From an uncultured Caldithrix sp. (GTDB taxonomy: Bacteria; Calditrichota; Calditrichia; RBG-13-44-9): a stretch of 64,000 nt of DNA. The stretch is taken from NCBI GenBank assembly GCA_964461135.1, contig CAYWTB010000016.1, forward strand, positions 84 through 64,083, read 5' to 3'. Positions 1 through 63,373 of this stretch are shown here, piece after piece. The position numbers were made by a program, and so were the translations under genes. Positions within the stretch are counted from its first letter, which is position 1. The number at the start of each line of letters is the position of its first letter. The notes under the pieces were generated by a model. It was not told the DNA's origin. It searched no databases and was given only the letters and a program-made list of their open reading frames with translations.

Positions 1-2427
1 TTTACGGATCAGCATCTCTGCTCCGGCCTGCAAGCGGTAAAAATAGATTCCACTGGCCAGATTATTGGCTATAAAATTTATTTTATAGATGCCGGCATTT
101 TGTCTTTTATTCACCAGAGTGGCTACTTTCTGCCCCAGTAAATCATACACTTCCAGTTTGACAAATTCAGTTTCCGGAATATCATACTGGATGGTGGTAT
201 TGGGATTAAAGGGATTAGGATAGTTCTGCAACAGATTATATCGTAAGGGAATTTCCCGTCGATTTTCCGGTATTGCGGTGGTACTGGTGGGATATTTAAC
301 CCGCAGATTATCAAAATATAAGACGCCATTATTGGTATCTCCCACTGCTCCCACATACCACAGTTTGATTTGAATGGATTTGAGTTTTATGGGAAAATTG
401 AAGGAGGAAGAGGGATCTATAGCATTAAAACTGCTGAGGGGAATTTTATACGTTTCGTAACCGGTAGAGTTTGTAGCAAATAATCCGGTCGAGGCGGTAA
501 ACAATTCATCATTATCGTCACTGATGATTACATCTGCAATATGATTCAGATTATTGGATTTGATATCAATCATGATGGTATCGGGAAGACCGTATACTGC
601 CTGATCGGTATTCAGATAAACCCAGCTTCGTCCCAGGCTGCTACGAACAAACTGGTAATTAAGTTTCAGAGCTCTGGTACCGATCGTACGAGGCGTGTCC
701 ACTGCAGTTAGTGCAGTACCCTGGGGATCATAATTTACACCCGATATACTCCAGTTATTTACATTGTCCATTGAATCTAAAACAACAACATCTTTTCCGA
801 TTTCCACATGAACAACACTGGTATCCGACTGATCCTTAAACTTAACAACGATTTGTGCCTGTCCTTCAGCGAATCCTTTGAATTTACCCGTAGTGTCAAT
901 GGAACCCACCGCAGGATTTAAACAGAACCATTCATAATCATTTAAAGCAATAAACGGATGCAAATTATCCACATCAGTGGGGATTACAGTGAACTGAACT
1001 GTCTGAATAGTATCTGTTAAAACCGATTTGGGCAGGATTTCAATTTCCTTGATGCCTTTAATAAAAATCCAGGCGGAATCCATCAGTCCCTGGTAGTTAA
1101 CATAGACATAACCACTGTCCGGCTCGTTAGCAACTGTAAGGACTCCACTGGAATCGACCTGGCCCAGCTGAGGATCCATGATATACTGGATATCAGGCTG
1201 AATTACAGCCACCGGATGATAGTATTCGTCCCAGCCACTGACTCTCAACTGAATGCTGTTTTTCAGAAAGACGCGCTGGTTATCCGGTTCCACCTGAATT
1301 GAGGTGATGCCACTTCCGGCCGGTGCCACGGAGACCGTGATCAGCGAATTGGCGACCGCACGCTCCGGTCCATCGGAGGGATGATTTTTGATCTGACCAT
1401 ATACGACCATGGTGGATGATCCGCCCCCGTCCAGGTTCACCGCCTGATCCGCCCCCAGATAGATCATCAGATCCGCCAGTTCGCGGTAGGACATGCCGGT
1501 GTAGCTTCCGGGAACCCGGCCGTCGACGGTAGCCAGGTAGAGTATGTGGTGATCAGCTGAAAAACCTGCCGCTGTTCGGGGATGAACATCCGTATTGGTA
1601 CTGCCGGTATAAGCGCCATTATCCACAATTTTAAGATTACCTCCAACCAGCTGTGTCAATTTCACCGGACCCGGCTGCAGCTTCAGCAACAGTTTTACAG
1701 TGTCCCCCACCTGAACATTGTTCTGCAGGAAAGTTCCGGCGGTTCCATGTCCGGATAATACCGCAATTCCCGGACTTAGACTCATGTCACCGCTGTTGCT
1801 CTTTTCTTCCACGCGGCAGCGAAGGGTATCATTTACATACCAATCACTGACGACTGTAACTTTAATTTCCGTTCCATAGATATTTGTACCGGTCGATCCT
1901 CCGTAAAATGAATTATACAAGATCAGTTGGTCAGTGCCGCGATCCCGGTTAATGCCATTAACCGGCTGATTTTGATTACCCGTAATCAGGCTGCCACTGA
2001 AACTCACCGGATCAATGGTGGGATAATTTTCAAAATCGAAGGAAAGAACCGGCCAGTCTATGGGATTCTGCAGGATCTGGCCATTTACCACCTGAGTATT
2101 TAAAGGAATACCACCGGAGGCGTAAAAATCTCCATTTACAGCACCTACCACCTCATGATCCTGATAATTTTTACGGCCGGCCATAGAACTGGTAGTTTCA
2201 TAACCGCTCAACCGCTCGTTGGCCTTAACCGTCTCCATAATGACATAGGGATTGGTCAGGTCAATCTCCAGAACATTGATATTCCACAAGCGGGAAGGGA
2301 CGGTAATATGTTTATACACCATTCCCGGTCCAACCCGTGTGGTGGTATGCGTCTCGAACAGGCTTTGAGCCTGGACTGACATCCAGGTGAGACACAGTAA
2401 AACGATAAAGTTGTTTAGTCGTTTCAT
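1..2427 (-). CDS. Phosphodiester glycosidase (NAGPA/DUF2233 family) with Ig-like domains, CBM-like domain and T9SS type-A CTD; 3' end runs off the window
   Basis: Not in the ORF track because the stop lies outside the window. Manual translation from ATG 2427 gives signal peptide MKRLNNFIVLLCLTWMSVQA, NAGPA motifs AVNGDFY, HPRTAAG, TVDGR and NLDGGGSSTM, then QNYPNPFNP...LASGIYFYRL...LIRK at base 1. Confidence 0.9.
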   Translation of the reverse strand, partial: MKRLNNFIVLLCLTWMSVQAQSLFETHTTTRVGPGMVYKHITVPSRLWNINVLEIDLTNPYVIMETVKANERLSGYETTSSMAGRKNYQDHEVVGAVNGDFYASGGIPLNTQVVNGQILQNPIDWPVLSFDFENYPTIDPVSFSGSLITGNQNQPVNGINRDRGTDQLILYNSFYGGSTGTNIYGTEIKVTVVSDWYVNDTLRCRVEEKSNSGDMSLSPGIAVLSGHGTAGTFLQNNVQVGDTVKLLLKLQPGPVKLTQLVGGNLKIVDNGAYTGSTNTDVHPRTAAGFSADHHILYLATVDGRVPGSYTGMSYRELADLMIYLGADQAVNLDGGGSSTMVVYGQIKNHPSDGPERAVANSLITVSVAPAGSGITSIQVEPDNQRVFLKNSIQLRVSGWDEYYHPVAVIQPDIQYIMDPQLGQVDSSGVLTVANEPDSGYVYVNYQGLMDSAWIFIKGIKEIEILPKSVLTDTIQTVQFTVIPTDVDNLHPFIALNDYEWFCLNPAVGSIDTTGKFKGFAEGQAQIVVKFKDQSDTSVVHVEIGKDVVVLDSMDNVNNWSISGVNYDPQGTALTAVDTPRTIGTRALKLNYQFVRSSLGRSWVYLNTDQAVYGLPDTIMIDIKSNNLNHIADVIISDDNDELFTASTGLFATNSTGYETYKIPLSSFNAIDPSSSFNFPIKLKSIQIKLWYVGAVGDTNNGVLYFDNLRVKYPTSTTAIPENRREIPLRYNLLQNYPNPFNPNTTIQYDIPETEFVKLEVYDLLGQKVATLVNKRQNAGIYKINFIANNLASGIYFYRLQAGAEMLIRK

Positions 2428-2966: not shown

Positions 2967-5489
2967 TTATTTTAACAAAATCATTTTACGTGACTGGACG
3001 AATGTGCCTGCCTGGATCTGGTATACATAGACTCCGGCTGCCAGATTGCTGGCATCAAAGCGTACCCGGTAAGTGCCGGGATCCTTCTCTTCCGAAACCA
3101 GCGTTTGAACCTGCTGTCCAAGTGCATTGAAAACTACAATTTTTACATGAACCCGCTCAGGAACTGCATAAGATATATTTGTAACCGGATTAAACGGATT
3201 GGGATAATTCTGCTCGAGCATGAACTGTGCCGGAATATTCCCATCAGAACCGGACCGGGCTATTCCGGTCATGGGGATTGCTTTAACTAATTGTAAATCA
3301 TCAATATAAACCTTTCCGCTGGTAGCGGCACCTGACTGATAGGTCAGCTGGAAGCTGTCCATACGATATTGCGGCATATCCAGAATACCATTTCCCAGAC
3401 CAGCCCAACTGCCCACCATGGCGGGGTCACCAAGGTCCCACTGCACCAGGCGCCAGCCCAGCCAGTCAATTTTGACCCACTGGGACACTTCATGATTCGG
3501 CCAGGATGTCCCGTCCCCCTCATCCAGTGCAAACCGGAAGAAATTATTTCCACCATCCCCGAATATGTAGCATTGTAACGTATAGGTGGTATCAAAGGTA
3601 ACATTACGCGGGGCAGATACATCCAGGTATTCCCGCATCAACCAGGTGGAAGCATTCAAATCCCAATCATAATATAATTCCATGGAGCGGGTGCTTCCGG
3701 TGAGTTCATTGAGGTATTGCTGATTTTCAGCCATATACACGCCCGGGGATGGATCGGTTCCGGTGGTACTGCCGCTCCAGAGCGGCTGCCGCCAGTAAGA
3801 AGAAAAGCCCGGTTCCAGGGCATCAATCTGCTGAAACTGAAAATCCGTAGGAGCACTGGTAAAACTGATTAAGCGGGTATTGGTGGTAGTATTTCCCAGC
3901 AGGTCCTTTAAACCGGGATAAAGCCGTACTACATGCAGAGCATTTGGGATTAAATCTACTGACGGAAAATAATTAAGAACACTTCGATCATTGACCACGT
4001 AGTGTTTAAGCACTCCCTGCACCGGCTGATGGTTCTGGTATTCCTCCAGCAGGAAAATATCATTGGTAATCGAACTGTCATCCAGCTGCTCATTAAATTC
4101 AAAATTGATAATCGGTCTTCGTTCAACATTCTTCTGATACATTCTGGGATAAAAAGCCAGAACTTCCGGTGGAAATACATCTATGCCGGTAGTAAAAGTA
4201 ATTTCCAGACTGTCTCCACCGATACCATCTCCGTTTCCGTCAAAGAGATGAGAGTATTTATCATTAACGGTTCCCGGAATGGATAAGGTATAGGTTGTCA
4301 GGAACTTCAAGGAATCACTGCGAATTACCAGGCGCGTATCATTATCCCACCAGGAATAAACAGGATTTATATCCGGTGTAACTACCAGTAATGATTCTAC
4401 CGATGCCCGGCTCATGGGCCGGCTGAATTGAAGGACAATATCCGCCAAAGTGGACACGGCAGTATCACCATCCGCCGGCGTACTGGACAATAACCTGGGC
4501 GGTATACGGGAAATCAGGGGGAAGTCTTTATAAGAAAAAAAGTCATCTGAAATGGCCACCCTGGCCGTATCTGAATAGTAATCATCCATCTGGACCGTTA
4601 CCACAACCGAGTCCGAATCCATATGTTCGAAATAATAGAAGCCATTATGGAGAAGATCCGGATCATTGGTGTATTGATTAAAAAGGGATTGATAGGTATC
4701 GGTAACATACTGCTGCCCGGCTGCATTGATTACTGCCCCGTTTAAAGGTTCTCCCGACTCCATGTTAGTCACAATTCCGGTAAGAATGTCAGCAGGCGGT
4801 CGCGGGATATTATGATAATCCAGAATCGACCAGTAAAAGGTACGCGCCTCCAGCCGAAGCCAGTCCATGTTCATGAACAGCTGATTCTGGATGGGATTGG
4901 TATGAAATCCCGCTTCACTTAGTTCGGAGGGCATAATGCTTTCGCGGTTCACATGCAACCAGGGACCGGTAAAGACGCCGCATCCGTAAAAAGTGCAATC
5001 ACCGATTGAGCCACTTATGGTGTAGGTACGCATGCCATCCGTCAGATACTGAATCATGATGTCTGACATGGCCCGGCCTCCGTTGGGTATTTTTTCCTGC
5101 CCGTTATTATACTGTCCCCACAGTAGAAGGGTACTGTTAGCATTGGGGCTGCTAGAGGCGTCACTGTGGATGGAATGATACCAGGCCGCATTGAGTGAAT
5201 TAGCCAGGGTAGTGCGTTGAGACAGCGACACCTGCTGAAAATCATCTGTGCGGGAAAGATAAACTGTATCAATATCAGTTTCCGTCAGTAATATATCTCT
5301 TAATTGCAGCGCCACGCGCACGTTACGTTTGGCCTCGGCCATGCCCCAGGGAAAAGGCGGCATATTCTCATTCTGACTGTGACCAGGATCTACGAAAATA
5401 TTCCATCCCTGTAAACCGGTTACCTGCGCAAATATCCCCAGAGGAAAAAGGAGAGTTAAAAAGATTACGATTTTATTTCTGATCATCAT
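2967..5489 (-). CDS. N-acetylmuramoyl-L-alanine amidase (Amidase_3) with two Ig-like (Big_5-like) domains, CBM-like domain and T9SS type-A CTD
   Basis: Signal peptide; Zn-amidase motifs VDPGH, E, SLSQR..LAN, SIHSDA, LSEAGFHTN; CTD QNYPNPFNP...RKMILLK. Confidence 0.9.
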   Translation of the reverse strand: MMIRNKIVIFLTLLFPLGIFAQVTGLQGWNIFVDPGHSQNENMPPFPWGMAEAKRNVRVALQLRDILLTETDIDTVYLSRTDDFQQVSLSQRTTLANSLNAAWYHSIHSDASSSPNANSTLLLWGQYNNGQEKIPNGGRAMSDIMIQYLTDGMRTYTISGSIGDCTFYGCGVFTGPWLHVNRESIMPSELSEAGFHTNPIQNQLFMNMDWLRLEARTFYWSILDYHNIPRPPADILTGIVTNMESGEPLNGAVINAAGQQYVTDTYQSLFNQYTNDPDLLHNGFYYFEHMDSDSVVVTVQMDDYYSDTARVAISDDFFSYKDFPLISRIPPRLLSSTPADGDTAVSTLADIVLQFSRPMSRASVESLLVVTPDINPVYSWWDNDTRLVIRSDSLKFLTTYTLSIPGTVNDKYSHLFDGNGDGIGGDSLEITFTTGIDVFPPEVLAFYPRMYQKNVERRPIINFEFNEQLDDSSITNDIFLLEEYQNHQPVQGVLKHYVVNDRSVLNYFPSVDLIPNALHVVRLYPGLKDLLGNTTTNTRLISFTSAPTDFQFQQIDALEPGFSSYWRQPLWSGSTTGTDPSPGVYMAENQQYLNELTGSTRSMELYYDWDLNASTWLMREYLDVSAPRNVTFDTTYTLQCYIFGDGGNNFFRFALDEGDGTSWPNHEVSQWVKIDWLGWRLVQWDLGDPAMVGSWAGLGNGILDMPQYRMDSFQLTYQSGAATSGKVYIDDLQLVKAIPMTGIARSGSDGNIPAQFMLEQNYPNPFNPVTNISYAVPERVHVKIVVFNALGQQVQTLVSEEKDPGTYRVRFDASNLAAGVYVYQIQAGTFVQSRKMILLK

Positions 5490-5519: not shown

Positions 5520-6458
5520 TTATTTCTCTACTTCAATATATTCAATGGTACCCTGGTCGTATGTACTGTAGGCAATCCGGTTTCCGGAAGGAGACCAGGA
5601 AGGATACATGGCAATATTGTCAATATCCCGGGTAATGTTCTGGGTTATAGTGCCCGTCAGGTTCGAAATGTAAATATCGGAGGAGGTATATATATAGCCA
5701 TTATCCTGAGCCATCATATAAGCCAGGTACTGGCCGTCCGGTGACCAGCGGGGATAGTTCCCTCTTCCCAGATCCACCAGGGCTCCGGATTGCGTATCCA
5801 TTATGTAGCAATTTCCACCATAAACCTCAAAGGCAATATACCGGTTATCCGGGGAGATGGTGAGATTTAAATACTGCTTCCCCGCAAAGGGTCTCATTTC
5901 GGATTGCTCATCAGATATATTGTCCTTTATGAAAATTTTATCATTTTGTGAATAGAAGATTTTTCCGGCTTCACGACTCTCCTGAGGTTCCCCCACATCA
6001 ATAAACATTTCCTGTTTCCCATTGAAGAAATAAACCTGATAATTCCCAGGGGTCCATCTGGGAATATCAGGAAGAAAGGTACGGTATTCCGTCAGGTATA
6101 TTTCTGTAGTACGGGCGACGTTAAAAATCTTGATTGCACTTTGTCTGAGATTATCCTGGTATCTTGACACCCGTGCCAGAATAGTCTGACCATCATCCGA
6201 CCAGGAAAATCCAAATCCGGCGGACAACTCATCGGTAATTTGTGTTAACTGTTGGGTACCAAAATCGAAAAGCCAGATCCCCTTATAATTCCCGGAGGTA
6301 AAGGCAATTTTATTACCAACGGGTGCCCAGTTGGGGTTCATATAGGCCGTCTCATTGCCGGACGGAACCATCAGTACCTTAACCGATTTCACCTGAAATA
6401 TATCCTGGGAGTAAAGTTGTACGGCAATTCCCAGAACCAAAATTAAAATTCTTTTCAT
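5520..6458 (-). CDS. TolB-like PD40 beta-propeller protein, Sec signal, no CTD (periplasmic)
   Basis: Repeated PxWSPDG-like blades: PNWAPVG, FSWSDDG, PRWTPG, ISPDN, PRWSPDG, PSWSPSG. Confidence 0.8.
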   Translation of the reverse strand: MKRILILVLGIAVQLYSQDIFQVKSVKVLMVPSGNETAYMNPNWAPVGNKIAFTSGNYKGIWLFDFGTQQLTQITDELSAGFGFSWSDDGQTILARVSRYQDNLRQSAIKIFNVARTTEIYLTEYRTFLPDIPRWTPGNYQVYFFNGKQEMFIDVGEPQESREAGKIFYSQNDKIFIKDNISDEQSEMRPFAGKQYLNLTISPDNRYIAFEVYGGNCYIMDTQSGALVDLGRGNYPRWSPDGQYLAYMMAQDNGYIYTSSDIYISNLTGTITQNITRDIDNIAMYPSWSPSGNRIAYSTYDQGTIEYIEVEK

Positions 6459-6489: not shown

Positions 6490-9400
6490 TTATTTGAGTA
6501 AAATCATCCGTTTATGTAAGACAACATCGCCGGCCCTCAATTCATAAATATAAACACCCGATGCGAGATTGGTCGCATTAAACTGAATTTTATAACTACC
6601 CGGCTGCATGACCTTGTTAACCAAAGAAACCACTTCCTGACCCAGAACATTGTAAATTTTAAGCTGGACCGGTCCGGATCTGCTGATATCGAAGGGTATG
6701 GTGGTTACCGGGTTGAATGGATTGGGATAATTCTGTTGCAGGGCAAATTGCTGAGGTAAACCGGCATTATGATTATCGGTGATTACCGTAATCTCATATT
6801 TTTTCTTGACCACGCGCAAGTCCTTGAAATAAAGGGTACCCGACATGGCGCCGGTACTGTCGTGCGTCAGCTGAAAACTGTCTATGCGGTAAGTACTCAT
6901 GTCCAAGGTACCGTTTCCGATCCAGTTGCCCACCATATCCGGATCGCTTAAATCCCATTGGATAAGTTTCCAGCCCATCCAGTCGATGGTAAACCATACC
7001 GATACTTCATGATTGGGCCAGAGGGTTCCGTTTCCTTCATCCAGGGCAAAACGAAATTTATTCAGACTTCCATCACCAAAGACATAACATTGGAGGATAT
7101 AATCGGTATTGAAAAATACATTTCTCGGTAGTGATTCATCCAGAAATTCCCTTAATAAATAATTGGGATTTCCTATTGCCAGCAAATCAGGATCCCAGAC
7201 ATAAGAAAGGCGTGCGGACTTTTTTTCAACCGGTGTATAAGCAGCGGGCAGATAAACATCGCTGACAATACCGAAGGTGCTTAATGTCGTATTCACCCCA
7301 TTGGTCGAGCCGCTGTACCCGGGATCCTGCCAGTTACCGGATCCGGAAAAATTATCAATCAGAGTTTTAAGCTCATAGGCATAGGGTTCGGTTTCAAAAT
7401 CCACTACAATCGCAGAATCCAGTGGATTACCGGATGTATCAGTAATATCGGTAAATACCGAAACCCGAAAGGGGTGTCCGGAATAGAGAGGATCTTCAGT
7501 CTGGACGCCGAGAACCGCTCGGTCATTCATGTTATAAATCATGGCCTTATGAGCCACGGGCTGTCCGGCTGTGGTCACAGCGGTGGAAGCAACTTGCAGC
7601 GAGGCGGGATCCAGCATTTCATCAAACCCGAAAGAGATAACATTATCCACATCAAAATCATCTACATAAGCCTTGACGGAAGGATTGCTGTAAACCAGAC
7701 GGGGAGGAAAAATATCCAAAGCACTGGTAAAAAACTGCAAGACATAATCTTCACTTCCCCCACCATTGGATTCTCCATCCAGCTGTTTACCATTGATGTC
7801 GGTAACTTCCTTATGGATGGTCAGAGCATATAAGGTATCATGAAATAGATCCTCATGAGGTATAATTACAAGTTGTTTCTGATCACTGTTCCAGTACCGG
7901 CTGAATGCAGGTACGGCAGGCTCGAAGGTCAAATTTCCCTGGAATGTGGCGGTATCCATAGTTTTGGAAAAATCTATAACTATAGGAATAAATACCGGTA
8001 TGGTATCTCCCGGCAGGGGATCCGTCCAGAGAACTACCGGAGCAAAGGAAGGGATGGAATCGCTCAGGTAAGTATTGGAGATAACCGATTCATTCCAGTA
8101 GCGGTCGAAACGGGTTGCATAATAGGTATAGCGGCCGTTGAAGTTCTGTAAACCGCTCATGGTATCGGTATAAGTATATACATCCTGGCCGAAATGAATA
8201 TCTATAAGTTCATCAGAAGCAACATCGGGGTTATCGTCTTCTGAACGGTAAATGGCAAAACGCTGATCCTCTGCTAACGGTTCGTTGGGTGATACCTCTA
8301 TGTCATATCTCAAATCATTGATTTTAGTGACGGTTATTAGGGGTGCGGAGGGAGACTGGTTATTAAGAAATGTAGCCGCGCGGACCTTGGTGAGCCGCTG
8401 AAAAAACAAATCCTTTGCCTCTTCCCAGTAGTCGTGATTTCTCCAGCTGCCATAACTGAAAAACTGAAATCCGTCCACCCAGGGAACATCGCGGGAACGT
8501 TGGACAATCTGAGTATGATTATCCCAAACATTTAGTTCGTCCAGTCTATAGGAACCGGGACCGACGGTAAACAGGCGGCCACTGTCTACGCCGGCCTGTA
8601 TCCAGTATCCCCAGCTTTCCTGTCCGTCCGCCACCAGCATACCGTAGAACTGATCGCCGGTCGTCCAGTGATAGTGCATGGGGGTCAGTTGATCGACAAA
8701 TCCCTGGTTAAACCAGAGGGCGGCATCCTGAAATACAATGCCGTATCCTTGCCAGCTGCTCCAGCGATATTTACCCAGTGCAGCAGGAGAGAGCCTTACC
8801 CAGGGTTTAACCTGCTGGATGGAATCGTGTAATGTCTTCACAAATTCAGTGACACTCCAGCGCCACCAGTCTTCCCATGTTGCAAAACCACCCGGTGCCG
8901 TGACCGGATCATAGGGATTCTGTACATCATACAAATAGCGTTCCTGGTTTGGCACCAGAGCCAGGTTTTCCATTTTCTGCTCGGAAAAAATTCCGTCAGG
9001 GGCGAATTTATCCTCTATACTCTCCACAGTAAGGCCGGTAAAATCGGAGCGGTCATATTCATTCCAGCGGACATAGTCCAGATGCAGACCGTCAATATCG
9101 TAATTGTGTACAATTTCCATGGCAACGTTGATGGTATAATCCCGCACGTCCTGCAATCCGGGCGAAAGGGCCCGGCTGGCCGGCATGGGAACCCCGTAGC
9201 CATCCCGGCAGACCCATTCCGGATGAACCTGGGCGGGCGCTCCATTCACAATATCCGAGGCACTGAAACAGTTAAACCAGGCATGCAATTCCAGTCCTCT
9301 TTTGTGGGCTTCCTGCACCGCATAGGCCAGCGGATCATAACCGGGATAGCTGTATCCTGCATAGTAACCCCAGGGTTCATAGGAAGAGTTATAATAGGCT

Positions 9401-9618
9401 GTTCCACTCTGCCTTACCTGCCAGAGGACGGCATTCATATTGGCTTTTTTAACATTATCCAGTATCTGCCGCACCCGCGCCTTATTTTCTTCCGGAGTGC
9501 TGTATGCACTGATATGTTCCCAGGTAATAACCCAGACCGCACGGAATTCCTCATTGGCGCCGGCAAAAACCCGGCTGAGGAGAAATAACAGAAAGAGCAA
9601 AAGAATAGAGACACGCAT
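6490..9618 (-). CDS. GHL10/DUF187 family glycoside hydrolase (DigH-like) with FN3/Ig-like domains, CBM-like domain and T9SS type-A CTD
   Basis: EFRAVW, NAVLWQVR, YDPLAYAVQEAHKRGLELHAWFN, YDIDGLHLD, QDAALWFNQGFVD..PMHY. Start moved from TTG 9636 to ATG 9618 (MRVSILLL signal peptide). Confidence 0.88.
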   Translation of the reverse strand: MRVSILLLFLLFLLSRVFAGANEEFRAVWVITWEHISAYSTPEENKARVRQILDNVKKANMNAVLWQVRQSGTAYYNSSYEPWGYYAGYSYPGYDPLAYAVQEAHKRGLELHAWFNCFSASDIVNGAPAQVHPEWVCRDGYGVPMPASRALSPGLQDVRDYTINVAMEIVHNYDIDGLHLDYVRWNEYDRSDFTGLTVESIEDKFAPDGIFSEQKMENLALVPNQERYLYDVQNPYDPVTAPGGFATWEDWWRWSVTEFVKTLHDSIQQVKPWVRLSPAALGKYRWSSWQGYGIVFQDAALWFNQGFVDQLTPMHYHWTTGDQFYGMLVADGQESWGYWIQAGVDSGRLFTVGPGSYRLDELNVWDNHTQIVQRSRDVPWVDGFQFFSYGSWRNHDYWEEAKDLFFQRLTKVRAATFLNNQSPSAPLITVTKINDLRYDIEVSPNEPLAEDQRFAIYRSEDDNPDVASDELIDIHFGQDVYTYTDTMSGLQNFNGRYTYYATRFDRYWNESVISNTYLSDSIPSFAPVVLWTDPLPGDTIPVFIPIVIDFSKTMDTATFQGNLTFEPAVPAFSRYWNSDQKQLVIIPHEDLFHDTLYALTIHKEVTDINGKQLDGESNGGGSEDYVLQFFTSALDIFPPRLVYSNPSVKAYVDDFDVDNVISFGFDEMLDPASLQVASTAVTTAGQPVAHKAMIYNMNDRAVLGVQTEDPLYSGHPFRVSVFTDITDTSGNPLDSAIVVDFETEPYAYELKTLIDNFSGSGNWQDPGYSGSTNGVNTTLSTFGIVSDVYLPAAYTPVEKKSARLSYVWDPDLLAIGNPNYLLREFLDESLPRNVFFNTDYILQCYVFGDGSLNKFRFALDEGNGTLWPNHEVSVWFTIDWMGWKLIQWDLSDPDMVGNWIGNGTLDMSTYRIDSFQLTHDSTGAMSGTLYFKDLRVVKKKYEITVITDNHNAGLPQQFALQQNYPNPFNPVTTIPFDISRSGPVQLKIYNVLGQEVVSLVNKVMQPGSYKIQFNATNLASGVYIYELRAGDVVLHKRMILLK

Positions 9619-9990
9619 AGTAAAATTTCCTGACAATATTAATGTAAAGTTTTATATTAATAATGAAGGTATCATAGCCTTTACATATACTAAACATACA
9701 AAAACTACTTTAACATAATAAGGGTTGAAAGAATATCAAAATGTATTTTTTTAAATGACTATTCCTTTAGTTCCGAAACGGAGCGGTGTATCATTACGGG
9801 CAGCACGCCAGACAGACCTGTCACATCCCTGTGCCAGACAGGAAGCAATCTCCTCAGGATTCTTGCAGTATTAGCCTTCCCTGGGATCAGCCAGTGAATA
9901 CGGGGATTAACTGACCTGCAGCTATTGTTGTCTGGTAAAATTTGAATTTTCAGTGCTTTTATCACTGGTTTCTAAGAGTTTGTCTTATCT

Positions 9991-13186: not shown

Positions 13187-13213
13187 TATGTGACTCCCAT
13201 TAACTTTCAAAGG

Positions 13214-16388: not shown

Positions 16389-16398
16389 ATCTGCATCC

Positions 16399-34575: not shown

Positions 34576-34579
34576 ATCG

Positions 34580-51514: not shown

Positions 51515-51579
51515 AGTTAAAACCACTGCCTCCCTGCGTGGGATTTAACTTTATTAACATATTCAGTATAGTTAATATT

Positions 51580-53045: not shown

Positions 53046-53681
53046 ATGAAATATATCTTACTGGTCTTATGTGTTTTTTATCTCACTGGTTGGGGACAAA
53101 CCGGGTTAGAAGAACTGGTAAACGTCAGAGAATTTATACCGGATATAGTCCTCGATCTGAAATATAACACTGTCGATAACTTCCTGAGTCAAAAACTGTA
53201 TACCACAGATGAATGTTACCTGGCCCGTGCAGTGGTCGAACGATTAATGCTGGTCCAGGACAGCCTGCGCCACATTATCTCTTTCGATGGAATAAATTAT
53301 CCGCAGGGACTGGGCTTGAAGATCTGGGACGGTTATCGTCCGCGGGCGGTTCAGTTTCTGATGTGGGAGATCATGCCGGATCCCAATTTCGTAGCTAATC
53401 CTTACACCGGCTCGCGCCATAATCGTGGTGTGGCAGTTGATGTGACGCTAGTTAACCGAGCCACCGGAAAAGAACTGGAAATGCCTACTCCGTTTGACGA
53501 TTTTACAGAAAAAGCGGCCCACACCTACATGAACCTGCCAGCGAATGTCATTGCTAACCGTACACTCCTGAAAAATATGATGGGGCAGGTAGGTGACCTG
53601 GAATTATACAATGCGGAATGGTGGCACTATTCCTATGCAGCTGCAGCCAGTTATCCGCTGCTGGATTTTCAATTGAAATGA
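53046..53681 (+). CDS. ddpX: D-alanyl-D-alanine dipeptidase (M15D, VanX/DdpX family) with signal peptide
   Basis: DGYRP, GSRHNRGVAVD (SxHxxGxAxD), MPTPFDDF, EWWHY. Confidence 0.88.
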   Translation: MKYILLVLCVFYLTGWGQTGLEELVNVREFIPDIVLDLKYNTVDNFLSQKLYTTDECYLARAVVERLMLVQDSLRHIISFDGINYPQGLGLKIWDGYRPRAVQFLMWEIMPDPNFVANPYTGSRHNRGVAVDVTLVNRATGKELEMPTPFDDFTEKAAHTYMNLPANVIANRTLLKNMMGQVGDLELYNAEWWHYSYAAAASYPLLDFQLK

Positions 53682-53689
53682 GGTGTTCT

Positions 53690-56903: not shown

Positions 56904-58169
56904 TCATGGATTTTCATTCATAAACCGGTTCAAATTCGGCAGACAAGGTCGCTCCCTATCAGATTCATAGTCATAAATCACCCGACCCAATTCCGCCAGA
57001 AATGGTAAACCTATTTCATCATATTCATAGGTATCATCATTATAAATCCGGTTCTCATTCACCTGAATAACCGCCGTTAGCAGAAATTCCACCTTCTTAT
57101 CAAGATCTATGATATAAGCATTGTCGATTAAATAGCCATAGGCCTGTCCGCTTTTATTGAATATCCTGATATTTGATGGAATTATCTGCCGGCTGTTCAA
57201 GTACATAAAAAATTTAAGATAACCATCGGGATATTCGGTGGTATCCCGGTAAGCGGTTATTTCGCTTTGACGGGGAAGCATGGACATGTAAGTATAGAGA
57301 AAACGATAATCATCGGCCGTAAGATCAAATACTCCACCGGAATCAGGCGGATCGGGATAGATAACCGCTTTCAGAATATTCTGCAGATCAGGTACAGAGA
57401 GGTAATTGGAATAACTGAAATCAATGGGATGGTGAACCAGTTCGCCGTTCCGGTAATATCCGATCCCCTGTTTCACTCCTTTCATTTTCACCTGCAATGT
57501 TTCCGGATTTATCACTACAGGTTGATGGTAAAGGGTCCGGTCATTTTCAAAAAAAGTTATGGGATTGGTGGCACGGTTTTCCAGAGTAGAAAGCCCCGAT
57601 TCCAGACGCCGGATAATCCGCACATCTGTGTATCCTTTGGCCCACAAGGTCCGGTTGATGTACTGCTGGCCCAGAAATTCGTACAATCGATTAAAAGCAT
57701 CATTATCACTAACCAGGAATATTTTCTTAATAAAATGGGCTATGGACGGCAGGTTGTTACTGGCCGTTGAATCATTATATTCCCGGCTTTGTCCGCTGTA
57801 GGCGCTGTCTATGCGCATTGAGGTATATTTGTTTAGACCAGGTATATTCAGCAGATTTATTTTTTCCAGGGCCAGCACTGCCACCGGCAGTTTGACGGTA
57901 CTTGCCGGATAAAAATATTCCCGGTTATTCACATGGTATTGAAAGGAGTGAAAATGTGGCTGATTCAGACTGTCCCGGTCAATGCACGTATACAGGATCT
58001 GCAAGCGGAATTTTTCCGGATTGTTTAATATTCCTGCAAACTTTGGCATATTTTTCTTGAGCAGATCCGGCAGGAAAATATCATCCTGACGGTTTCTGTT
58101 TGTACAGTGTGATACCAGTATCGCTATAAAAATCAGGATAAACCAGAAAACGGATTTTTTCATATTCAT
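56904..58169 (-). CDS. Class A beta-lactamase-related serine hydrolase, lipoprotein
   Basis: Lipobox LVSHC; YPASTVK (SxxK), SDN and NKSG motifs. Confidence 0.82.
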   Translation of the reverse strand: MNMKKSVFWFILIFIAILVSHCTNRNRQDDIFLPDLLKKNMPKFAGILNNPEKFRLQILYTCIDRDSLNQPHFHSFQYHVNNREYFYPASTVKLPVAVLALEKINLLNIPGLNKYTSMRIDSAYSGQSREYNDSTASNNLPSIAHFIKKIFLVSDNDAFNRLYEFLGQQYINRTLWAKGYTDVRIIRRLESGLSTLENRATNPITFFENDRTLYHQPVVINPETLQVKMKGVKQGIGYYRNGELVHHPIDFSYSNYLSVPDLQNILKAVIYPDPPDSGGVFDLTADDYRFLYTYMSMLPRQSEITAYRDTTEYPDGYLKFFMYLNSRQIIPSNIRIFNKSGQAYGYLIDNAYIIDLDKKVEFLLTAVIQVNENRIYNDDTYEYDEIGLPFLAELGRVIYDYESDRERPCLPNLNRFMNENP

Positions 58170-58589: not shown

Positions 58590-61082
58590 TCAGCGTAGTA
58601 GGGACATCTTGCCGGAAAGAGATTGTTCTCCTGCTGTTAAACGATAAATATACACTCCGGAGGGCACTGACTGACCCCTTTTATTTAAACCGTTCCAGAT
58701 TACACTGTACTGGCCGGGCGGCTTATTTTCATTCAGTAAAGTAATTATTTTGCGTCCCAACACATCAAAAATCTCCAGCCTGGTATGCACCATTCCACCA
58801 GCGGGTATGGTAAATGTGATGGAGGTAGAGGGATTGAAGGGATTGGGAAAATTCTGGCTCAACTTGAATTGGCCGGGGATCCCATCAGGCCCTGTAGAAG
58901 TGAGAGCAGAGGGATGACCAAAAAACTGCAGTATGCGGGCCATCAGGCTGTCCCGGGTACCGGACGGATAGAAGGTTTCAAATGGAACAGCCAGGTATAC
59001 CAGCTTCCCGGGCACGGTACCTGTTCCGAACGTCCCCTGGAACTGAATTCCCGCCCCGCCGTATGTTGCCGGAGTAAAACCGTTGTGGGTCATACATTGT
59101 ATAGAACCATCGATCGGACGGATGCCATCCGGATAATCCACGTCATAAGATCCCTGTGAACCGTCATCAAATAGAAGATTTAGAAGATCATCAAATATAG
59201 AGGACGTAACACCAGATACCGTATGGGTTGGTACACGGTCCAGCACATATTCCGCCTTCAGATAATCACGGTAAAATGCTTTATCCTCACTACTGCCCTG
59301 TTCCACCAGATCGTAACCGATTTCCGATCCTGACACAAAGAAATTGCCACCATTTCTCAGGAAAATAGATACCCGTTGCTGTTCGGCTATACTGAAACTC
59401 TCATCGGTGGTTCCCTCTTCCCCGGAAATCCAGATGACCACATCATAATTCGGCAGCGAAATGATGCCGTCAATGATGCATTCATTGGAACAGGAATCAA
59501 AAACCCGGCCTTCCCTGACTACGGAAGGGGCAAATCTGTTAATATAATTGAAATTATTAACCGTACCGCTGACCCGGTCAAAACCGTTTACAATTATAAT
59601 ATCCGCCTGTGCAGACGATGGTTTTACAGCCAGCACTTCTGTGGGGAGGCTTTCTCCATTGCCATTAACTGCAGAAAATTTAAAATAATAAAGTGAATCG
59701 GGTGACAGTGCGTTCAGGACTATATCCGGATTGGGAAAATCAGTACCTGTATCAAAACTATTACCATCAGTACTTTTGTACAGACGATATCCAGTTGCCC
59801 CGGCTGCCGGTGAAACGGTAACCGCGGAACTGTAGTTGCCCAGGTTTGTAATCCGGAAATTCACCGGTCTGAGCGGCGGACTGCTGGAACCGAATGCATT
59901 GGCAAGTGCGGCCTGTAATTCCTGCCGCTGCCCGTCATAACTGAGAGCCCAGATGGCCACCCCCCTTAAATTGTCCTGATTGATAAGATTGAATTTAAGG
60001 GCAAGGCTCAGACTGTCATCATACCATCCCTGATACCACAGAGAATTATCGGAATATTTATACCAGGGAGTTTGCGACTCCGGTTCCCATAAGCGTCCGT
60101 AATACAGAGCATTTACATACGCCGTACTGTAGAAAATAGCGGTTCCGGATGACAGGGAGGGAGAATTGAGCCCGTCATCTGCAGTATTCCATTCAAAACC
60201 GTAGAAAGGAACACTGAGTATAAGCTTACTGACATTCTGTAATGTTTTATCAAGATAATCTTCCACCGTCCAGGACACACAATACGTTCCCCAGAGGGGA
60301 CCTCCGGTAAGAGGTGCAACCGGCCCGGCATTGGGAGCAGTACGCCAGTGAAAGTCATATCCCTGCATGATCAAACCATCGGTTACGCGGACAAGATTAT
60401 AATAATCGAAGGCATTGCTCCAGTCTACCGCCGGGGTAAAAATTGTCACATAGGAACCCGGGATGGTAAAGTGGAAGGTTGTGGCCAGCTCTGTCATAAA
60501 ATCCGTTAATCCCTGCCGTGCGGAGGATGGAACTCCTTCAAAATCGATGGTAACCCCATCGGCATTGGCATTCTGAACCTGGGTCAGCAGGTTAGTTACC
60601 AGGTTGGTGCGGCTGGAAGGAGAATTAAGCAGTGTTCCCAGTTTGGTACGATCAAACAGGATCACGGTTAATACTACCCTCACCCCTTCCGAATGGGCCT
60701 GGTTTATGAGCCCGGCTGCCGGCCAGTTATGCAAATTGACGATGTTGCCTGACTCATTGATATCTGCACCGAAGTAGGCAATGGTAGTCAACAGGCTGTA
60801 ATTCAGATTCGGATAATAGGAATAGACCCAATAAGGCAAATAACCAAATACTTCCCTTCCCGGCGGGACTTCCCTAGGAATTAAATCCATCGGCCGGCCC
60901 TCAAAAACAGGCGCGTTCTGTTGAGGTACATAATTCCGGTATTCTTCCCATTCCACCTGATGGATACTTTTTGAGCTTTTCATCCCGGCAAAAAACTCCT
61001 CAGAGTTCGCAGACCATAAAACACTTGAGGTACTCAACATTACCACCAGTATCAAAATATTTTCTATTCTGCTCAATACCAT
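58590..61082 (-). CDS. GH18 glycoside hydrolase (chitinase/peptidoglycan N-acetylglucosaminidase-like) with FN3, 'GFDR' alpha/beta domain and T9SS type-A CTD
   Basis: VFGYLPYW, ADGVTIDFE catalytic motif, MQGYDF, KLILSVPFYG, WYDD..SL..K, GVAIWAL; QNFPNPFNP...KMSLLR. Confidence 0.88.
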   Translation of the reverse strand: MVLSRIENILILVVMLSTSSVLWSANSEEFFAGMKSSKSIHQVEWEEYRNYVPQQNAPVFEGRPMDLIPREVPPGREVFGYLPYWVYSYYPNLNYSLLTTIAYFGADINESGNIVNLHNWPAAGLINQAHSEGVRVVLTVILFDRTKLGTLLNSPSSRTNLVTNLLTQVQNANADGVTIDFEGVPSSARQGLTDFMTELATTFHFTIPGSYVTIFTPAVDWSNAFDYYNLVRVTDGLIMQGYDFHWRTAPNAGPVAPLTGGPLWGTYCVSWTVEDYLDKTLQNVSKLILSVPFYGFEWNTADDGLNSPSLSSGTAIFYSTAYVNALYYGRLWEPESQTPWYKYSDNSLWYQGWYDDSLSLALKFNLINQDNLRGVAIWALSYDGQRQELQAALANAFGSSSPPLRPVNFRITNLGNYSSAVTVSPAAGATGYRLYKSTDGNSFDTGTDFPNPDIVLNALSPDSLYYFKFSAVNGNGESLPTEVLAVKPSSAQADIIIVNGFDRVSGTVNNFNYINRFAPSVVREGRVFDSCSNECIIDGIISLPNYDVVIWISGEEGTTDESFSIAEQQRVSIFLRNGGNFFVSGSEIGYDLVEQGSSEDKAFYRDYLKAEYVLDRVPTHTVSGVTSSIFDDLLNLLFDDGSQGSYDVDYPDGIRPIDGSIQCMTHNGFTPATYGGAGIQFQGTFGTGTVPGKLVYLAVPFETFYPSGTRDSLMARILQFFGHPSALTSTGPDGIPGQFKLSQNFPNPFNPSTSITFTIPAGGMVHTRLEIFDVLGRKIITLLNENKPPGQYSVIWNGLNKRGQSVPSGVYIYRLTAGEQSLSGKMSLLR

Positions 61083-61120: not shown

Positions 61121-63373
61121 TCATTTAGTAAACAACAGCTTCCAGGATTTTTTATACTTTTTTTGTGAATTAACAGCCTGCGCAGAGAAAGTGGCGATAT
61201 AAACGCCGCTGGCCACCAGCCGGCCTTCTTCATTGATTCCATTCCAATCCACCCGGTAACCGCCGCTCTGAAATTGTCCGTCAACCAGTCTCCTTATAGG
61301 CTGTCCCAGCATATTATATATGACCAGGTCCACCCGGGAAGCAAGCGGTAACTGAAAATGAATGGTGGTGGACGGATTAAATGGATTAGGATAATTAGGT
61401 GACATGGAAAAATTTTCAGGTATTTGGACGGAATTGTCCGGATATATGGAGGATGCTTCAAAGAAGTAATTCAACACCCGGCTAAAAAACTCAACCCGTA
61501 CCCCGGCATTAAAAACGGTCTCAAAGGGAAACGTGCAATACACCAGGAGCCCGGCGCTGGTTCCATTCCCGAAGATTCCTTCATAATAAATCGCGGCTGT
61601 CTGTCCCGAAGCATATTCCAGGCCGGCGATGGTACTTCCCCCCACCGGCAGGATAATATCTATGGAATCTGGCGTATAGGGTGATTGTCCAACTGCGGCG
61701 GAAAATCCGTCAAAAATTGATCCGCCTTGTCCGGTGACATTATATAGCCCGGCCTGATGATCACTGAAATCTGCTTTCAGATAATCGGATAAAAAGAGCG
61801 AGTCATCCGGTGTGGCCCCTGGATTTGCATCCGGATCAAGATCCGTGGCGATATCCGAGCCGCTTACAAAGAGATTTCCGCCATTCTCCAGGTAACGTAT
61901 CACCCATTGCTGTTCCGACGCACTGAACGTTTCATCAGCAACGGATTCATCACCCAGAATCCAGAAAACCGCTTCATAATTGTTCAGATCGATCAAACTG
62001 TCCGTGATCGCTTCGTTGGGTACGGTATCAAAACTGTACTGATTATCCCGCAGTGCTCTTCCGTAAATAAATCCGAAAGTGTGATAGGGAACTGGCCAGG
62101 CGCCATCTGTACGGTCAAATCCATCTACAATCAGCACGCGGTGAGGAAAGGCAGAGCCGTTGCTTGTCCCGTATATATCCGAGGAAATACTCTCGTTGGT
62201 TACCGGCGCACTGTCCACAGCCGTAAGCCTGAAATATGCATCGGTATTAATGACCTGCCTCAGCAAGGTGTCTGTGATCGAAGGTGTCAGAATATTTTCA
62301 TCCTTGAATAACGTCCATAGGCTGTTATCAAAACTGAAATAAAGCCGGTATCCCAGCAGGTCCTGATCGGTATTGGGATACCAGGCAAGGTGCATACCGG
62401 TATCTGTCCCCTTCAGGTAGCTGAAAACAGGCTGCTCCGGAGGGGTGGTATCAGAGGCTACTACTCTGACGCGTACATATGCCGTCTCCGCATTCTGGCG
62501 GGTATCTTCGGTAAAAACCATCACCACATAATCATCTTCCGGGAGATTCCGGGTGTCCCAGTAATCATCTATACCAATACTGTTGGTAACCTGGTAAACG
62601 TGACTGGAGGTGCTGGATAACGGTGTAAAATATACGTAACTGAGGTAAGTGTTATTGGGTTTGAAATCAAATTGATAGCGGATACCGCCGTTGAGCGGCT
62701 CATAAACCACAGTTCCGGAATCGCTGCTGAGAATGCGATACCCGATCTTATAGGTCCCGTTGTTAAGAACCGAGGTTGAAGATCCCGGCGGGCCATTATG
62801 TTCCTCTACTTTTACAATAATGTCCACCAGTCCGCTCAGGTTCGGGCCTGGAAATTCATTGGCGGTATTATTCTGGTAAAATCTCACAAAAGTAATCTCC
62901 GGTGCCCAGGTATCCACCAGTGCAGCAAAACTGTTATGATATACCATGCTGTTCACTTCGACACCGACATACCCATTGGTAAAATGTACATGTCCCTGGC
63001 CGGCTAAAATGTTTCCCAGAACAGTGACCGAGGCATAGACAGAATCACCTACGGACAGGGCTGGATTTGGTGTGATATGCACATAAGCTTTATCCTGCAC
63101 GCGCACATAGGCATCGGTTCCGGTGGGATAAATCGTGCTGACAATGCCATCTCTTACCGGATACACCGCAGAATAATCCGGCTTGGGAATATCGGTACCA
63201 TTATGAAAGTGACCGGGGGTGGTGGTACTGCGGTACTCACAAAACGTACCGGTAATCAGGTGATTCTGGTTGAAGGGTTTTACCGGCCAGGGAAACAGAT
63301 CCTGGCTGTGGGCCTGAAGAACCGGGACCAAAAATAGCAGGAAAAATATTAAAAAATGTTTCTTTGATGTCAT
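61121..63373 (-). CDS. M23-like zinc metallopeptidase with Ig/FN3, 'GFDR' alpha/beta domain and T9SS type-A CTD
   Basis: TGTFCEYR..HFHNGTD (HxxxD) and HVHF (HxH); PNYPNPFNP...KLLFTK. Confidence 0.78.
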   Translation of the reverse strand: MTSKKHFLIFFLLFLVPVLQAHSQDLFPWPVKPFNQNHLITGTFCEYRSTTTPGHFHNGTDIPKPDYSAVYPVRDGIVSTIYPTGTDAYVRVQDKAYVHITPNPALSVGDSVYASVTVLGNILAGQGHVHFTNGYVGVEVNSMVYHNSFAALVDTWAPEITFVRFYQNNTANEFPGPNLSGLVDIIVKVEEHNGPPGSSTSVLNNGTYKIGYRILSSDSGTVVYEPLNGGIRYQFDFKPNNTYLSYVYFTPLSSTSSHVYQVTNSIGIDDYWDTRNLPEDDYVVMVFTEDTRQNAETAYVRVRVVASDTTPPEQPVFSYLKGTDTGMHLAWYPNTDQDLLGYRLYFSFDNSLWTLFKDENILTPSITDTLLRQVINTDAYFRLTAVDSAPVTNESISSDIYGTSNGSAFPHRVLIVDGFDRTDGAWPVPYHTFGFIYGRALRDNQYSFDTVPNEAITDSLIDLNNYEAVFWILGDESVADETFSASEQQWVIRYLENGGNLFVSGSDIATDLDPDANPGATPDDSLFLSDYLKADFSDHQAGLYNVTGQGGSIFDGFSAAVGQSPYTPDSIDIILPVGGSTIAGLEYASGQTAAIYYEGIFGNGTSAGLLVYCTFPFETVFNAGVRVEFFSRVLNYFFEASSIYPDNSVQIPENFSMSPNYPNPFNPSTTIHFQLPLASRVDLVIYNMLGQPIRRLVDGQFQSGGYRVDWNGINEEGRLVASGVYIATFSAQAVNSQKKYKKSWKLLFTK

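Follow-up and report, generated by a model that had tools for sequence, protein, structure and literature searches.

A predicted peptidoglycan foraging locus in an uncultured Caldithrix sp. with a type IX secretion system

Does a locus crowded with candidate peptidoglycan (PG) hydrolases help a bacterium to turn over its own cell wall, or to feed on the walls of others? The question is raised by a 64,000-nucleotide stretch of contig C16 (the whole stretch analysed, hereafter the window) from an uncultured Caldithrix sp., in which the ORF listing gives 31 large open reading frames (ORFs; g1 to g31) within positions 1-63373. An earlier note, made from the letters alone, had proposed feeding on foreign walls rather than recycling. 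The answer reached here is that the window is likely to be the larger part of a PG foraging system in a bacterium bearing a type IX secretion system (T9SS), acting on exogenous PG, whether from necromass or from live prey. PG is a large, nitrogen-rich part of microbial necromass in sediments, and its degraders and their machinery are poorly known beyond a few model recycling pathways. The locus would supply, for a widespread sediment phylum, a concrete set of genes for breaking down PG outside the cell and taking it up, with candidate enzymes for seldom-covered steps (a secreted hydrolase of denuded glycans, a phosphodiester glycosidase that may act on wall polymers, and a fused NagZ-amidase); a passage of PMC6365825, citing Marshall et al. 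2017, notes the Calditrichaeota for protein degradation.

Families were assigned by Pfam and NCBIfam profile searches of the 31 ORFs, and N-termini were judged by eye for signal peptides and lipoboxes. The source assembly (5.0 Mb, 180 contigs, 98.8% complete) was compared with 30 genomes from the same order, 31 including its own: G001 and G002 belong to the same genus, G013 to a different genus of the same family, and G019, G025, G026 and G028 to other families. Synteny was read from 26- to 80-kb stretches around NamZ in six relatives and from four contigs of G013, G002 and G004. The GHL10, GH18, NagZ plus AmiE-like, NamZ, Amidase_3, YkfC-like, DdpX, M28 and SxxK proteins and the three TonB-dependent receptors (TBDRs) picked out in the earlier note were all located by the profile searches, and the enzymes encoded here would between them act on almost all bonds of the bacterial wall. 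Beyond these, the NAGPA-like g1, the NagX-like g15, the barrels g7, g10 and g21 and the large T9SS-tagged proteins g8, g11 and g22 were added.

The outermost layer of the proposed system comprises six predicted secreted enzymes, five of which carry a scoring T9SS C-terminal sorting domain (CTD):

1..2427, minus strand: g1, NAGPA-like phosphodiester glycosidase with Big_2 and T9SS CTD (PF09992 8e-30, PF18962)
2967..5489, minus strand: g2, secreted N-acetylmuramoyl-L-alanine amidase (Amidase_3) with Big_5 and CTD (PF01520 2.3e-16, PF13205, PF18962)
6490..9636, minus strand: g4, secreted GHL10 glycosidase (Cwp19/DigH-like) with Big_5 and CTD (PF02638 7.9e-33)
51538..52929, plus strand: g26, secreted M28 aminopeptidase with CTD (PF04389 4.8e-27)
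58590..61082, minus strand: g30, secreted GH18 enzyme (YdhD/SleL-like) with fn3, a shared module and CTD (PF00704 1.5e-29)
61121..63373, minus strand: g31, secreted M23-like metallopeptidase with Ig-like domains, a GATase1-like module and CTD

Ten proteins of the window (g1, g2, g4, g5, g20, g24, g25, g26, g28 and g30) score above the TIGR04183 cut-off as type-A T9SS CTD proteins. Pfam scores the CTD of g31 below threshold, yet the end of the protein aligns with the other CTDs. The export signals attributed to the polymer-acting enzymes are borne out by TIGR04183/PF18962 matches. The full length of g1 is 814 aa, with a stop codon that falls outside the window by 16 nt on the left, at a distance of 67 nt from the end of the contig; its PDB matches are 6ozd, 3ohg (DUF2233) and NAGPA 6pku (3e-6). 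For g4, the sole match in a PDB sequence search is C. difficile Cwp19 (5oq2, 1.9e-28); g2 (residues 326-840) and g4 (528-1048) have in common a tail of ~520 aa at 38% identity. At the top of the PDB matches of g30 are 4wiw and B. subtilis YdhD (3cz8, 6.3e-22) with 80-81 bits, followed by an immunomodulatory chitinase at 48 bits, SleL 4s3j at 47, YaaH 4s3k at 40 and the remaining chitinases below 40. The catalytic strand of g30 reads DGVTIDFE, in which IDFE (catalytic DxE) is kept, and by sequence its GH18 domain appears nearer to the PG-active or cortex-lytic YdhD, SleL and YaaH than to chitinases.

The M23-like call on g31 stood by its residues and not by its profile score. PF01551 falls below the gathering score (E 0.013, 16.2 bits vs 28.7), whereas no variation is seen among 74 aligned orthologues (502 homologues collected) at the zinc/catalytic residues H57-x3-D61, H99 and H128-x-H130, and precomputed PF01551 matches lie on 28 of the 120 homologues listed; because of these residues and matches g31 is taken to be M23-like. 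Its AlphaFold2 (AF2) model has a mean predicted local distance difference test score (pLDDT) of 88, and the whole model retrieves Ig/FN3 chains only in Foldseek. A non-catalytic module of ~300 aa is common to g30 (after GH18), g31 (after M23) and, at 31-36% identity, an Amidase_2 enzyme of G025. One targeting scaffold on three unrelated catalytic domains would most simply mean three activities against one substrate. Folded alone, g31 residues 400-650 (pLDDT 91, predicted TM-score 0.90) adopt a glutamine-amidotransferase-like fold (Foldseek TM ~0.5); there is no PG-binding precedent among the Foldseek matches of the module and no invariant Cys or His in it. The G025 enzyme is itself T9SS-tagged and lies in the stretch 12490-16671 of that locus, where it adjoins a YkuD (L,D-transpeptidase-fold) lipoprotein.

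The second layer consists of lipoproteins, one exported and one transmembrane protein, and one cytoplasmic enzyme:

27444..30353, minus strand: g14, lipoprotein in which a NagZ-type GH3 beta-N-acetylglucosaminidase is fused to an AmiE/PBP4B-like beta-lactamase-fold domain (PF00933 4e-85, PF00144 2.6e-68)
30945..32045, plus strand: g15, NagX-like transmembrane acetyltransferase (PF07786; NF046061)
32325..33587, plus strand: g16, lipoprotein, predicted exo-beta-N-acetylmuramidase NamZ (GH171) (PF07075 8.2e-87, PF20732 9.8e-55)
35448..36299, plus strand: g19, predicted cytoplasmic gamma-D-glutamyl-L-diamino acid peptidase, YkfC/dipeptidyl peptidase VI (DPP VI)-like (SH3 and NlpC/P60 2.3e-24)
53046..53681, plus strand: g27, exported D-Ala-D-Ala dipeptidase of the DdpX/VanX family (PF01427, Peptidase_M15, 9.3e-32; signal peptide)
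56904..58169, minus strand: g29, lipoprotein with a class-A-like penicillin-recognising fold (PF13354, Beta-lactamase2, 2.8e-13)

The N-terminal part of the 969-aa g14 matches B. subtilis NagZ/YbbD (3bmx, 5.9e-74) and carries the NagZ Asp-His signature as KHYPGHGDTDVDSH, with Y at the F/I position of what we take to be the general form, KH(F/I)PG(H/L)Gx4D(S/T)H, while its C-terminal part holds SxxK as SVTK661. In g16 both NamZ_N (290.3 bits) and NamZ_C (185.9 bits) exceed the Pfam cut-offs, with a PDB match to 4k05 (2.9e-86). Among named NamZ proteins its closest relatives come from Calditrichaceae, Calditrichia and Caldithrix metagenome-assembled genomes at 49-62% identity. A NagZ-like gene stands beside NamZ in 33 of 80 NamZ loci from many phyla, and four of these genes span the whole fused length of g14. 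The lipoprotein type of NamZ occurs in 19 of the 30 relatives, and the cytoplasmic type, found in this genome on another contig (C15:38048-39226; signal-less, 41-44% identical to g16, adjoining a helicase-like gene), is more widespread. The peptidase g19 matches Bacteroides DPP VI (3pvq, 1.5e-49) and B. cereus YkfC (3h41, 3.3e-26) and keeps DCSG Cys183. In g29 the motifs STVK90 (SxxK), SDN154 (SxN) and KSG339 are present behind the lipobox LVSHC; a PDB sequence search gave no match for it, and an orthologue of 53% identity lies near the G025 locus. The NagX-like g15 adjoins NamZ in G013, G019, G025, G026 and G028.

By eye, g14 and g16 have the lipoboxes LLPGC and VISNC and g19 has no signal sequence at its N-terminus, in agreement with the earlier placement of NagZ and NamZ as lipoproteins and of the YkfC-like peptidase in the cytoplasm. 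The outside-to-inside order that had been suggested can thus be traced from T9SS-tagged endo-enzymes through TBDRs and the lipoproteins NagZ-AmiE-like and NamZ to the cytoplasmic YkfC-like enzyme.

Where, then, do the released sugars and peptides go? A catabolic cluster on contig C80 encodes MurQ, above cut-off, surrounded by an AraC regulator, a PF01869 (MurK-type) kinase, two SSF sodium:solute symporters, NagB (PF01182) and an alanine symporter, and in addition DUF1611, an S13 DD-peptidase, an ornithine/diaminopimelate (DAP) decarboxylase and two MR_MLE (enolase-superfamily, dipeptide-epimerase-like) genes. It also holds a second NagZ-AmiE-like fusion lipoprotein, 60% identical to g14, and a second YkfC-like protein, which is a lipoprotein; one of the epimerase-like proteins has a signal-like N-terminus. 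The DUF1611 gene is the second gene after one of the enolase superfamily, with the alanine symporter between (C80:13581-14648 and 10992-12101), and the two are directly adjacent in G025; the pair may form a route of D-glutamate catabolism, to which such pairs have been linked, and a literature search on DUF1611 with D-glutamate gave nothing.

Of the genes that the earlier note had named for a search beyond the window, murQ, nagB and the Ala-Glu epimerase are thus accounted for on C80 (the last as the two epimerase-like genes near murQ), and the T9SS core is represented by SprA and PorU; nagA and anmK were not found. Profile searches of the genome detected neither AnmK nor an AmpG-family permease, so that hydrolytic foraging fits better than anhydromuropeptide recycling. 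MurNAc auxotrophy (no MurA/MurB) was considered and rejected on a search for MurA, which is present (567 bits, above cut-off).

Synteny ties the two contigs together. On a 40-kb contig of G013 (C12) the order kinase-NagZAmiE-SSF-MurQ-g13-g12-g11-g10-g9-g8-g7-g6-g5-g4-g3-g2-g1-YkfC2-epimerase runs on one strand at 46-80% identity, with NagX and NamZ upstream. On contig C21 of G002, g5-g4-g3-g2-g1 is followed by AraC and the kinase, matching the start of C80. In G004 the order is NagX-NamZ-g17-g19-g20-g21-g22-g23 and, divergently, g24-g25, and in G019, G025, G026 and G028 window and C80 genes are interleaved in differing orders. The g23-g22-g21 unit stays with NamZ/MurQ genes in G025, G028 and G004. 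Given this contiguity and interleaving in G013, G002 and the relatives of other families, the window and C80 genes are best regarded as one functional set, which in this genome is probably a single locus of ~85-90 kb split by the assembly; the adjacency is drawn from synteny, and the C16 and C80 contig ends have no common sequence. By tblastn, g1, g2, g15, g27, g29, g30 and g31 have no other copy spanning half of their length in the 5.0-Mb genome. These single-copy genes, and the linkage of the same genes in relatives, indicate clustering beyond chance; GHL10 has three additional Pfam matches above cut-off elsewhere in the genome.

Between the secreted and the periplasmic layers stand three receptor units:

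11927..13210, minus strand: g6, TIG-domain lipoprotein at the end of unit 1 (PF01833 2.9e-12; lipobox FLLQC)
13214..14218, minus strand: g7, PorV/PorQ-family outer-membrane barrel, unit 1 (NF033709 183 bits)
14256..16556, minus strand: g8, large secreted protein that matches no known family, with a divergent CTD-like end, unit 1; likely start ~16388
16399..19434, minus strand: g9, TBDR, unit 1 (CarbopepD_reg_2 and Plug)
19474..20502, minus strand: g10, PorV/PorQ-family barrel, unit 2 (NF033709 200 bits)
20516..22663, minus strand: g11, paralogue of g8, unit 2 (no Pfam/NCBIfam family)
22685..23647, minus strand: g12, lipoprotein, no family found, unit 2 (lipobox CLNSC; conserved in G013)
23637..26810, minus strand: g13, TBDR, unit 2 (CarbopepD_reg_2 and Plug)
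38881..39993, minus strand: g21, PorV/PorQ-family barrel, unit 3; likely start 39927 (NF033709 205 bits; homologues ~348 aa)
40016..43624, minus strand: g22, secreted protein of 1202 aa from a large family without a name, with a CTD-like end, unit 3
43709..46582, minus strand: g23, TBDR, unit 3 (PF00593, Plug, CarbopepD_reg_2)

After each TBDR come one or two large proteins of no family (g8; g12 and g11; g22) and then a PorV/PorQ-family barrel (g7, g10, g21) that exceeds the NF033709 cut-off of 90 bits and falls below the PorV and PorQ equivalog cut-offs. No Pfam family was found for g8, g11 or g22, nor any NCBIfam family for g8 and g11, which are 36% identical over 733 aa; the C-termini of all three have in common a segment of ~100 residues resembling a T9SS sorting domain. 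The g22 family counts at least 2617 homologues, all hypothetical, in Atlas clusters without a family, and g22 paralogues occur in four other TBDR units of the genome. Genome-wide there are 24 PorV/PorQ-family genes above cut-off and 28 Plug-domain genes; 14 of the 24 barrel genes follow a Plug gene of their own strand at a distance of 3-7 kb, three of them in the window. There is no SusD_RagB match in any of the 31 ORFs in Pfam, and the window TBDRs reach 72-84 bits against TIGR04056 (SusC; cut-off 368), with the N-terminal part alone matching; on these two grounds the locus lies outside the SusC/SusD class. In the G019 locus (12454-16731) a SusC-like TBDR and a SusD_RagB lipoprotein stand between the AraC regulator and NagX, so that in another family the same pathway would be served by a classical SusCD pair.

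Co-folding of g21 (residues 26-348) with g22 (1085-1202) scored 0.92 (three runs, 0.91-0.92) vs 0.00 for the best of three controls, with a partner pLDDT of at least 75 and agreement between runs in at least 87% of contacts. In calibration 58 of 80 solved complexes reached the mark, as did 2 of 110 pairs that were mismatched; these figures are approximate here as own alignments were used. Complexes of a PorV-type barrel with a cargo domain are described in a passage of PMC10202324 (PorU on PorV, PorZ on PorQ), and the high g21/g22 score may reflect a likeness to these; it is silent on specificity. It is proposed that each barrel keeps its neighbour protein at the surface beside the receptor, in place of the SusD and surface glycan-binding proteins of Bacteroidota; this architecture of receptor, T9SS cargo and PorV-like barrel may be a local counterpart of SusCD systems. 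A wider version of the idea is held tentatively, as a possibility with rather more doubt than confidence behind it: a SusD-less 'utilisome' would exist in Calditrichota and neighbouring lineages of the Fibrobacterota-Chlorobiota-Bacteroidota (FCB) group, made of a TBDR and a very large T9SS-delivered protein (the g22, g8 and g11 families) with a divergent CTD, held by a cognate PorV/PorQ-like barrel, and here three PG-specialised units would sit in one ~90-kb regulon leading from foreign sacculus to central metabolism, including a replacement for NagA.

Family membership, localisation signals and synteny together suggest how the foraging system would work. The T9SS-exported, endo-acting g2, g4, g30 and g31 and the aminopeptidase g26 would attack PG outside the cell, where g1 possibly strips wall polymers linked through GlcNAc-1-phosphate, and the cell's own sacculus would be beyond reach behind the outer membrane. 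Fragments would be bound at the surface, where each barrel (g7, g10, g21) is envisaged to anchor its large T9SS-tagged partner (g8, g11, g22), and imported through the TBDRs g9, g13 and g23. In the periplasm the lipoproteins g14 and g16 would release N-acetylglucosamine (GlcNAc), stem peptides and N-acetylmuramic acid (MurNAc) from non-reducing ends, like three B. subtilis enzymes, while DdpX g27 and the SxxK lipoprotein g29 would trim peptides and the NagX-like g15 may re-acetylate glucosamine residues. The sugars would then enter metabolism by the sodium symporters, MurK-type kinase, MurQ and NagB of C80, and the stem peptides would be handled by the YkfC-like peptidases, the dipeptide-epimerase-like enzymes, DUF1611, the S13 peptidase, the DAP-decarboxylase-like enzyme and the alanine symporter.

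Several findings weigh against this reading, the first of which is the step after MurQ. Canonical NagA (TIGR00221) has no match at E<=1e-3 in the 98.8%-complete genome and is above cut-off in just 3 of the 31 genomes searched across the order, which leaves that step unaccounted for. To our knowledge, GlcNAc-6-phosphate, the product of MurQ, requires deacetylation for any fate, and for this reason the missing NagA is read as a non-orthologous replacement rather than a dead end. NagA is rare, yet MurQ is present here, with homologues in the G013, G019, G025 and G026 loci, and a NagB-like gene stands beside MurQ in this genome, which suggests that the lineage has an unrecognised, non-orthologous GlcNAc-6-phosphate deacetylase; a missing enzyme would thereby be indicated across an order. 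The PIG-L family was tried as a substitute and set aside: none of its four genes in the genome lies within PG loci and their neighbours are uninformative.

On the same side of the balance are scores below the thresholds of the named families: besides PF01551 on g31, the NagZ equivalog on g14 (NCBIfam; 169 bits, cut-off 207), PBP4B as the best NCBIfam match of its C-terminal part (206 bits, cut-off 385), whose AmiE-like role is assigned from gene context, NF046061 (NagX) on g15 (216.8 bits over the full length, cut-off 480) and PRK10178 on g27 (155 bits, cut-off 176). In g30 the middle Asp of the GH18 motif DxxDxDxE is absent, with Thr instead. No counterparts of g26-g28 were found in the compared stretches of six relatives or in the four contigs of G013, G002 and G004, except that G013 has a weak match resembling g28 (22-24% identity). 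The lipoprotein-type NamZ is also absent from the same-genus G001 (a single contig, 92% complete), so the trait is not fixed. No convincing common regulatory motif emerged when 16 intergenic regions, taken from both the window and C80, were searched with 16-mers at <=3 mismatches; the scan gave just three AT-rich matches, each spanning three other regions. The FG-GAP, NHL, PD40, g28, aldo-keto reductase and PRiA4 members are tied to PG by position alone, the lipoprotein exo-enzymes could also serve turnover of the cell's own wall, and the NagX-like g15, the GH9 gene on the right flank and GH20 in G026 are also typical of chitin or chitosan use.

This last point leads to the best-surviving alternative, which is nevertheless unlikely: that the region serves the degradation of amino-sugar polymers and protein in general (chitin, chitosan, glycoproteins, detrital protein), with PG as one substrate among several and the TBDR units importing unrelated glycans. 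The unit of TBDR, large protein and PorV-like barrel is indeed generic, with 14 in the genome and g22 paralogues in four others than those of the window; g15, the GH9 gene beside the window and the GH20 gene of the G026 locus would fit chitin or chitosan, and the M28, FG-GAP and NHL proteins bear no PG signature. However, NamZ, both muramoyl-alanine amidase types, M23, DdpX, the YkfC-like enzymes, S13 and MurQ play no part in the use of chitin, the GH18 domain is closest to cortex-lytic enzymes, in G013 murQ directly precedes the g13 TBDR unit and shares its strand, and g23-g22-g21 is kept with NamZ/MurQ genes in three relatives.

Very unlikely is a system that is first a weapon, whose secreted lytic enzymes kill neighbouring, mainly Gram-positive, bacteria with nutrients as a secondary gain. 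Secreted amidases, M23-like peptidases, GH18 and GHL10 enzymes are types used by bacteriolytic organisms, and all four would be T9SS-exported here, but family scans of the 31 ORFs revealed no immunity genes or toxin-delivery components, and the close linkage with receptors, exo-enzymes and a complete catabolic route, conserved in relatives, speaks for nutrition. Since a cell can both kill and feed, this explanation overlaps with foraging. Least credible is that the cell recycles turnover products of its own wall, with the secreted enzymes as autolysins. Parts of PMC8054146 do describe the homologous B. subtilis NagZ, AmiE and NamZ genes as a recycling operon, the lipoproteins g14 and g16 may be directed towards the periplasm, in which own fragments arise, and a second, signal-less NamZ exists on C15. 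However, eleven proteins with T9SS sorting domains would cross the outer membrane away from a diderm's sacculus, TBDR uptake implies an outside source, the anhydromuropeptide entry points AnmK and AmpG were not found by profile search, and absence of the locus from the same-genus G001 would be unusual for housekeeping. Feeding on foreign walls is therefore preferred to recycling, as the earlier note had it, on the strength of murQ and the T9SS genes, the lack of AnmK and AmpG matches, the affinity of the GH18 domain and contiguity in relatives.

The remaining genes of the window are as follows:

5520..6458, minus strand: g3, PD40/TolB-like beta-propeller with a signal peptide (PF07676)
10410..11813, minus strand: g5, T9SS-tagged protein with weak propeller signals (PF18962)
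33580..34575, plus strand: g17, aldo-keto reductase overlapping the NamZ stop (PF00248 5.1e-50)
34739..35206, plus strand: g18, PRiA4_ORF3-like protein (PF07929)
36400..38754, minus strand: g20, FG-GAP repeat protein with CTD, closing TBDR unit 3 (PF13517, PF18962/TIGR04183)
48021..49823, plus strand: g24, FG-GAP protein with CTD, divergent from g23 (syntenic with g23 in G004, G025 and G028)
49972..51465, plus strand: g25, NHL/propeller-like protein with CTD (Pfam; synteny in relatives)
53618..55975, plus strand: g28, T9SS-tagged protein; likely start 53690 (PF18962 alone)
63791..64000, minus strand: C-terminal part of a secreted protein of 420 aa that belongs to no known family (the same protein follows g31 in G028)

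The position of g3 between g2 and g4 is retained in G013, G002 and G004; g5 is a distant paralogue of g25 (27% identity), g17 is retained after NamZ in G004 only, and g18, which has no counterpart in the relatives' loci compared, is probably an unrelated passenger. Between the divergent g23 and g24, the gap 46583-48020 (1.4 kb, AT-rich with ~36% GC) has neither a notable ORF nor an Rfam match; it is presumably a control region common to both genes. An Rfam scan of the whole window gave 0 matches, and in a promoter and terminator scan of 26.5-36.5 kb the one notable feature was a strong hairpin between g19 and g20. On the right flank (C16:64000-73777, window 63917 onwards), the 420-aa secreted protein is followed by a GH9 gene with CelD_N and then by an FAD-linked oxidase and a CCG/4Fe-4S protein of the GlcD/GlcF type, a pair that could oxidise the D-lactate released by MurQ. 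DNA near-identical to window positions 27444-36299 occurs in sequencing runs labelled salt marsh metagenome; beyond the possible source run, two runs contain 0.74-0.84 of the sampled words from that segment, the listed runs all date from one year and may stem from one campaign, and no RNA run is among them.

How does the foraging locus compare with known systems? Exact-word searches of the literature, subscription journals aside, found no description of such a locus. It is nearest in its core to the B. subtilis operon murQ-murR-murP-amiE-nagZ-namZ, whose NagZ, AmiE and NamZ, according to a passage of PMC8054146, jointly digest intact PG from non-reducing ends outside the cytoplasm. The likeness extends to a two-domain NamZ, a YbbD-type two-domain NagZ, a beta-lactamase-fold partner in the place of AmiE, and MurQ. 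Unlike in that operon, NagZ and the AmiE-like domain are here fused and lipid-anchored, TBDRs, sodium symporters and a kinase replace the MurP phosphotransferase system, the regulator is of AraC type and not MurR, a layer of T9SS-secreted endo-enzymes is added and the locus is ~10 times larger.

The Tannerella murTKQ operon, with its sodium symporter MurT and PF01869 kinase MurK (from a passage of PMC5790795), resembles the cluster of PF01869 kinase, sodium-symporter-family transporters and MurQ that lies on C80 here and is contiguous with window genes in G013. Furthermore, Tannerella forsythia is a T9SS-bearing FCB-group organism that reportedly has two NamZ paralogues (NamZ1/NamZ2). MurA is present here, so no MurNAc auxotrophy of the Tannerella kind arises, and TBDR units, secreted endo-hydrolases and peptide-catabolic genes are added. 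As in the polysaccharide utilisation loci (PULs) of Bacteroidota, TBDRs with an N-terminal CarboxypepD_reg domain and a weak SusC/RagA match share their locus with hydrolases, at the surface or secreted, and with periplasmic exo-enzymes that would serve one polymer, but in the place of SusD is found a large T9SS-tagged protein of no known family together with a PorV/PorQ-like barrel.

The peptide branch recalls B. subtilis ykfABCD and Bacteroides DPP VI in its YkfC/DPP VI-like peptidases (g19 and the C80 copy) and in the epimerase-like genes beside the C80 copy. In contrast to ykfABCD, one YkfC-like protein is cytoplasmic and the other a lipoprotein, one epimerase-like protein has a signal-like N-terminus, and the specificities are predicted. 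The GHL10 domain of g4 invites comparison with C. difficile Cwp19, its PDB match, and with E. coli DigH, which we take to be a GHL10 member (the profile search shows an E. coli GHL10 match); g4 stands two genes from the amidase g2, which would yield denuded glycans. DigH degrades such glycans, according to a passage of PMC12288456. Unlike either, g4 is T9SS-exported with Big_5 and so neither a divisome nor an S-layer protein. Overall, by analogy with these systems, the locus can be viewed as a B. subtilis-like NagZ/AmiE/NamZ-MurQ pathway to which PUL-like uptake and a lytic layer secreted by the T9SS would have been joined.

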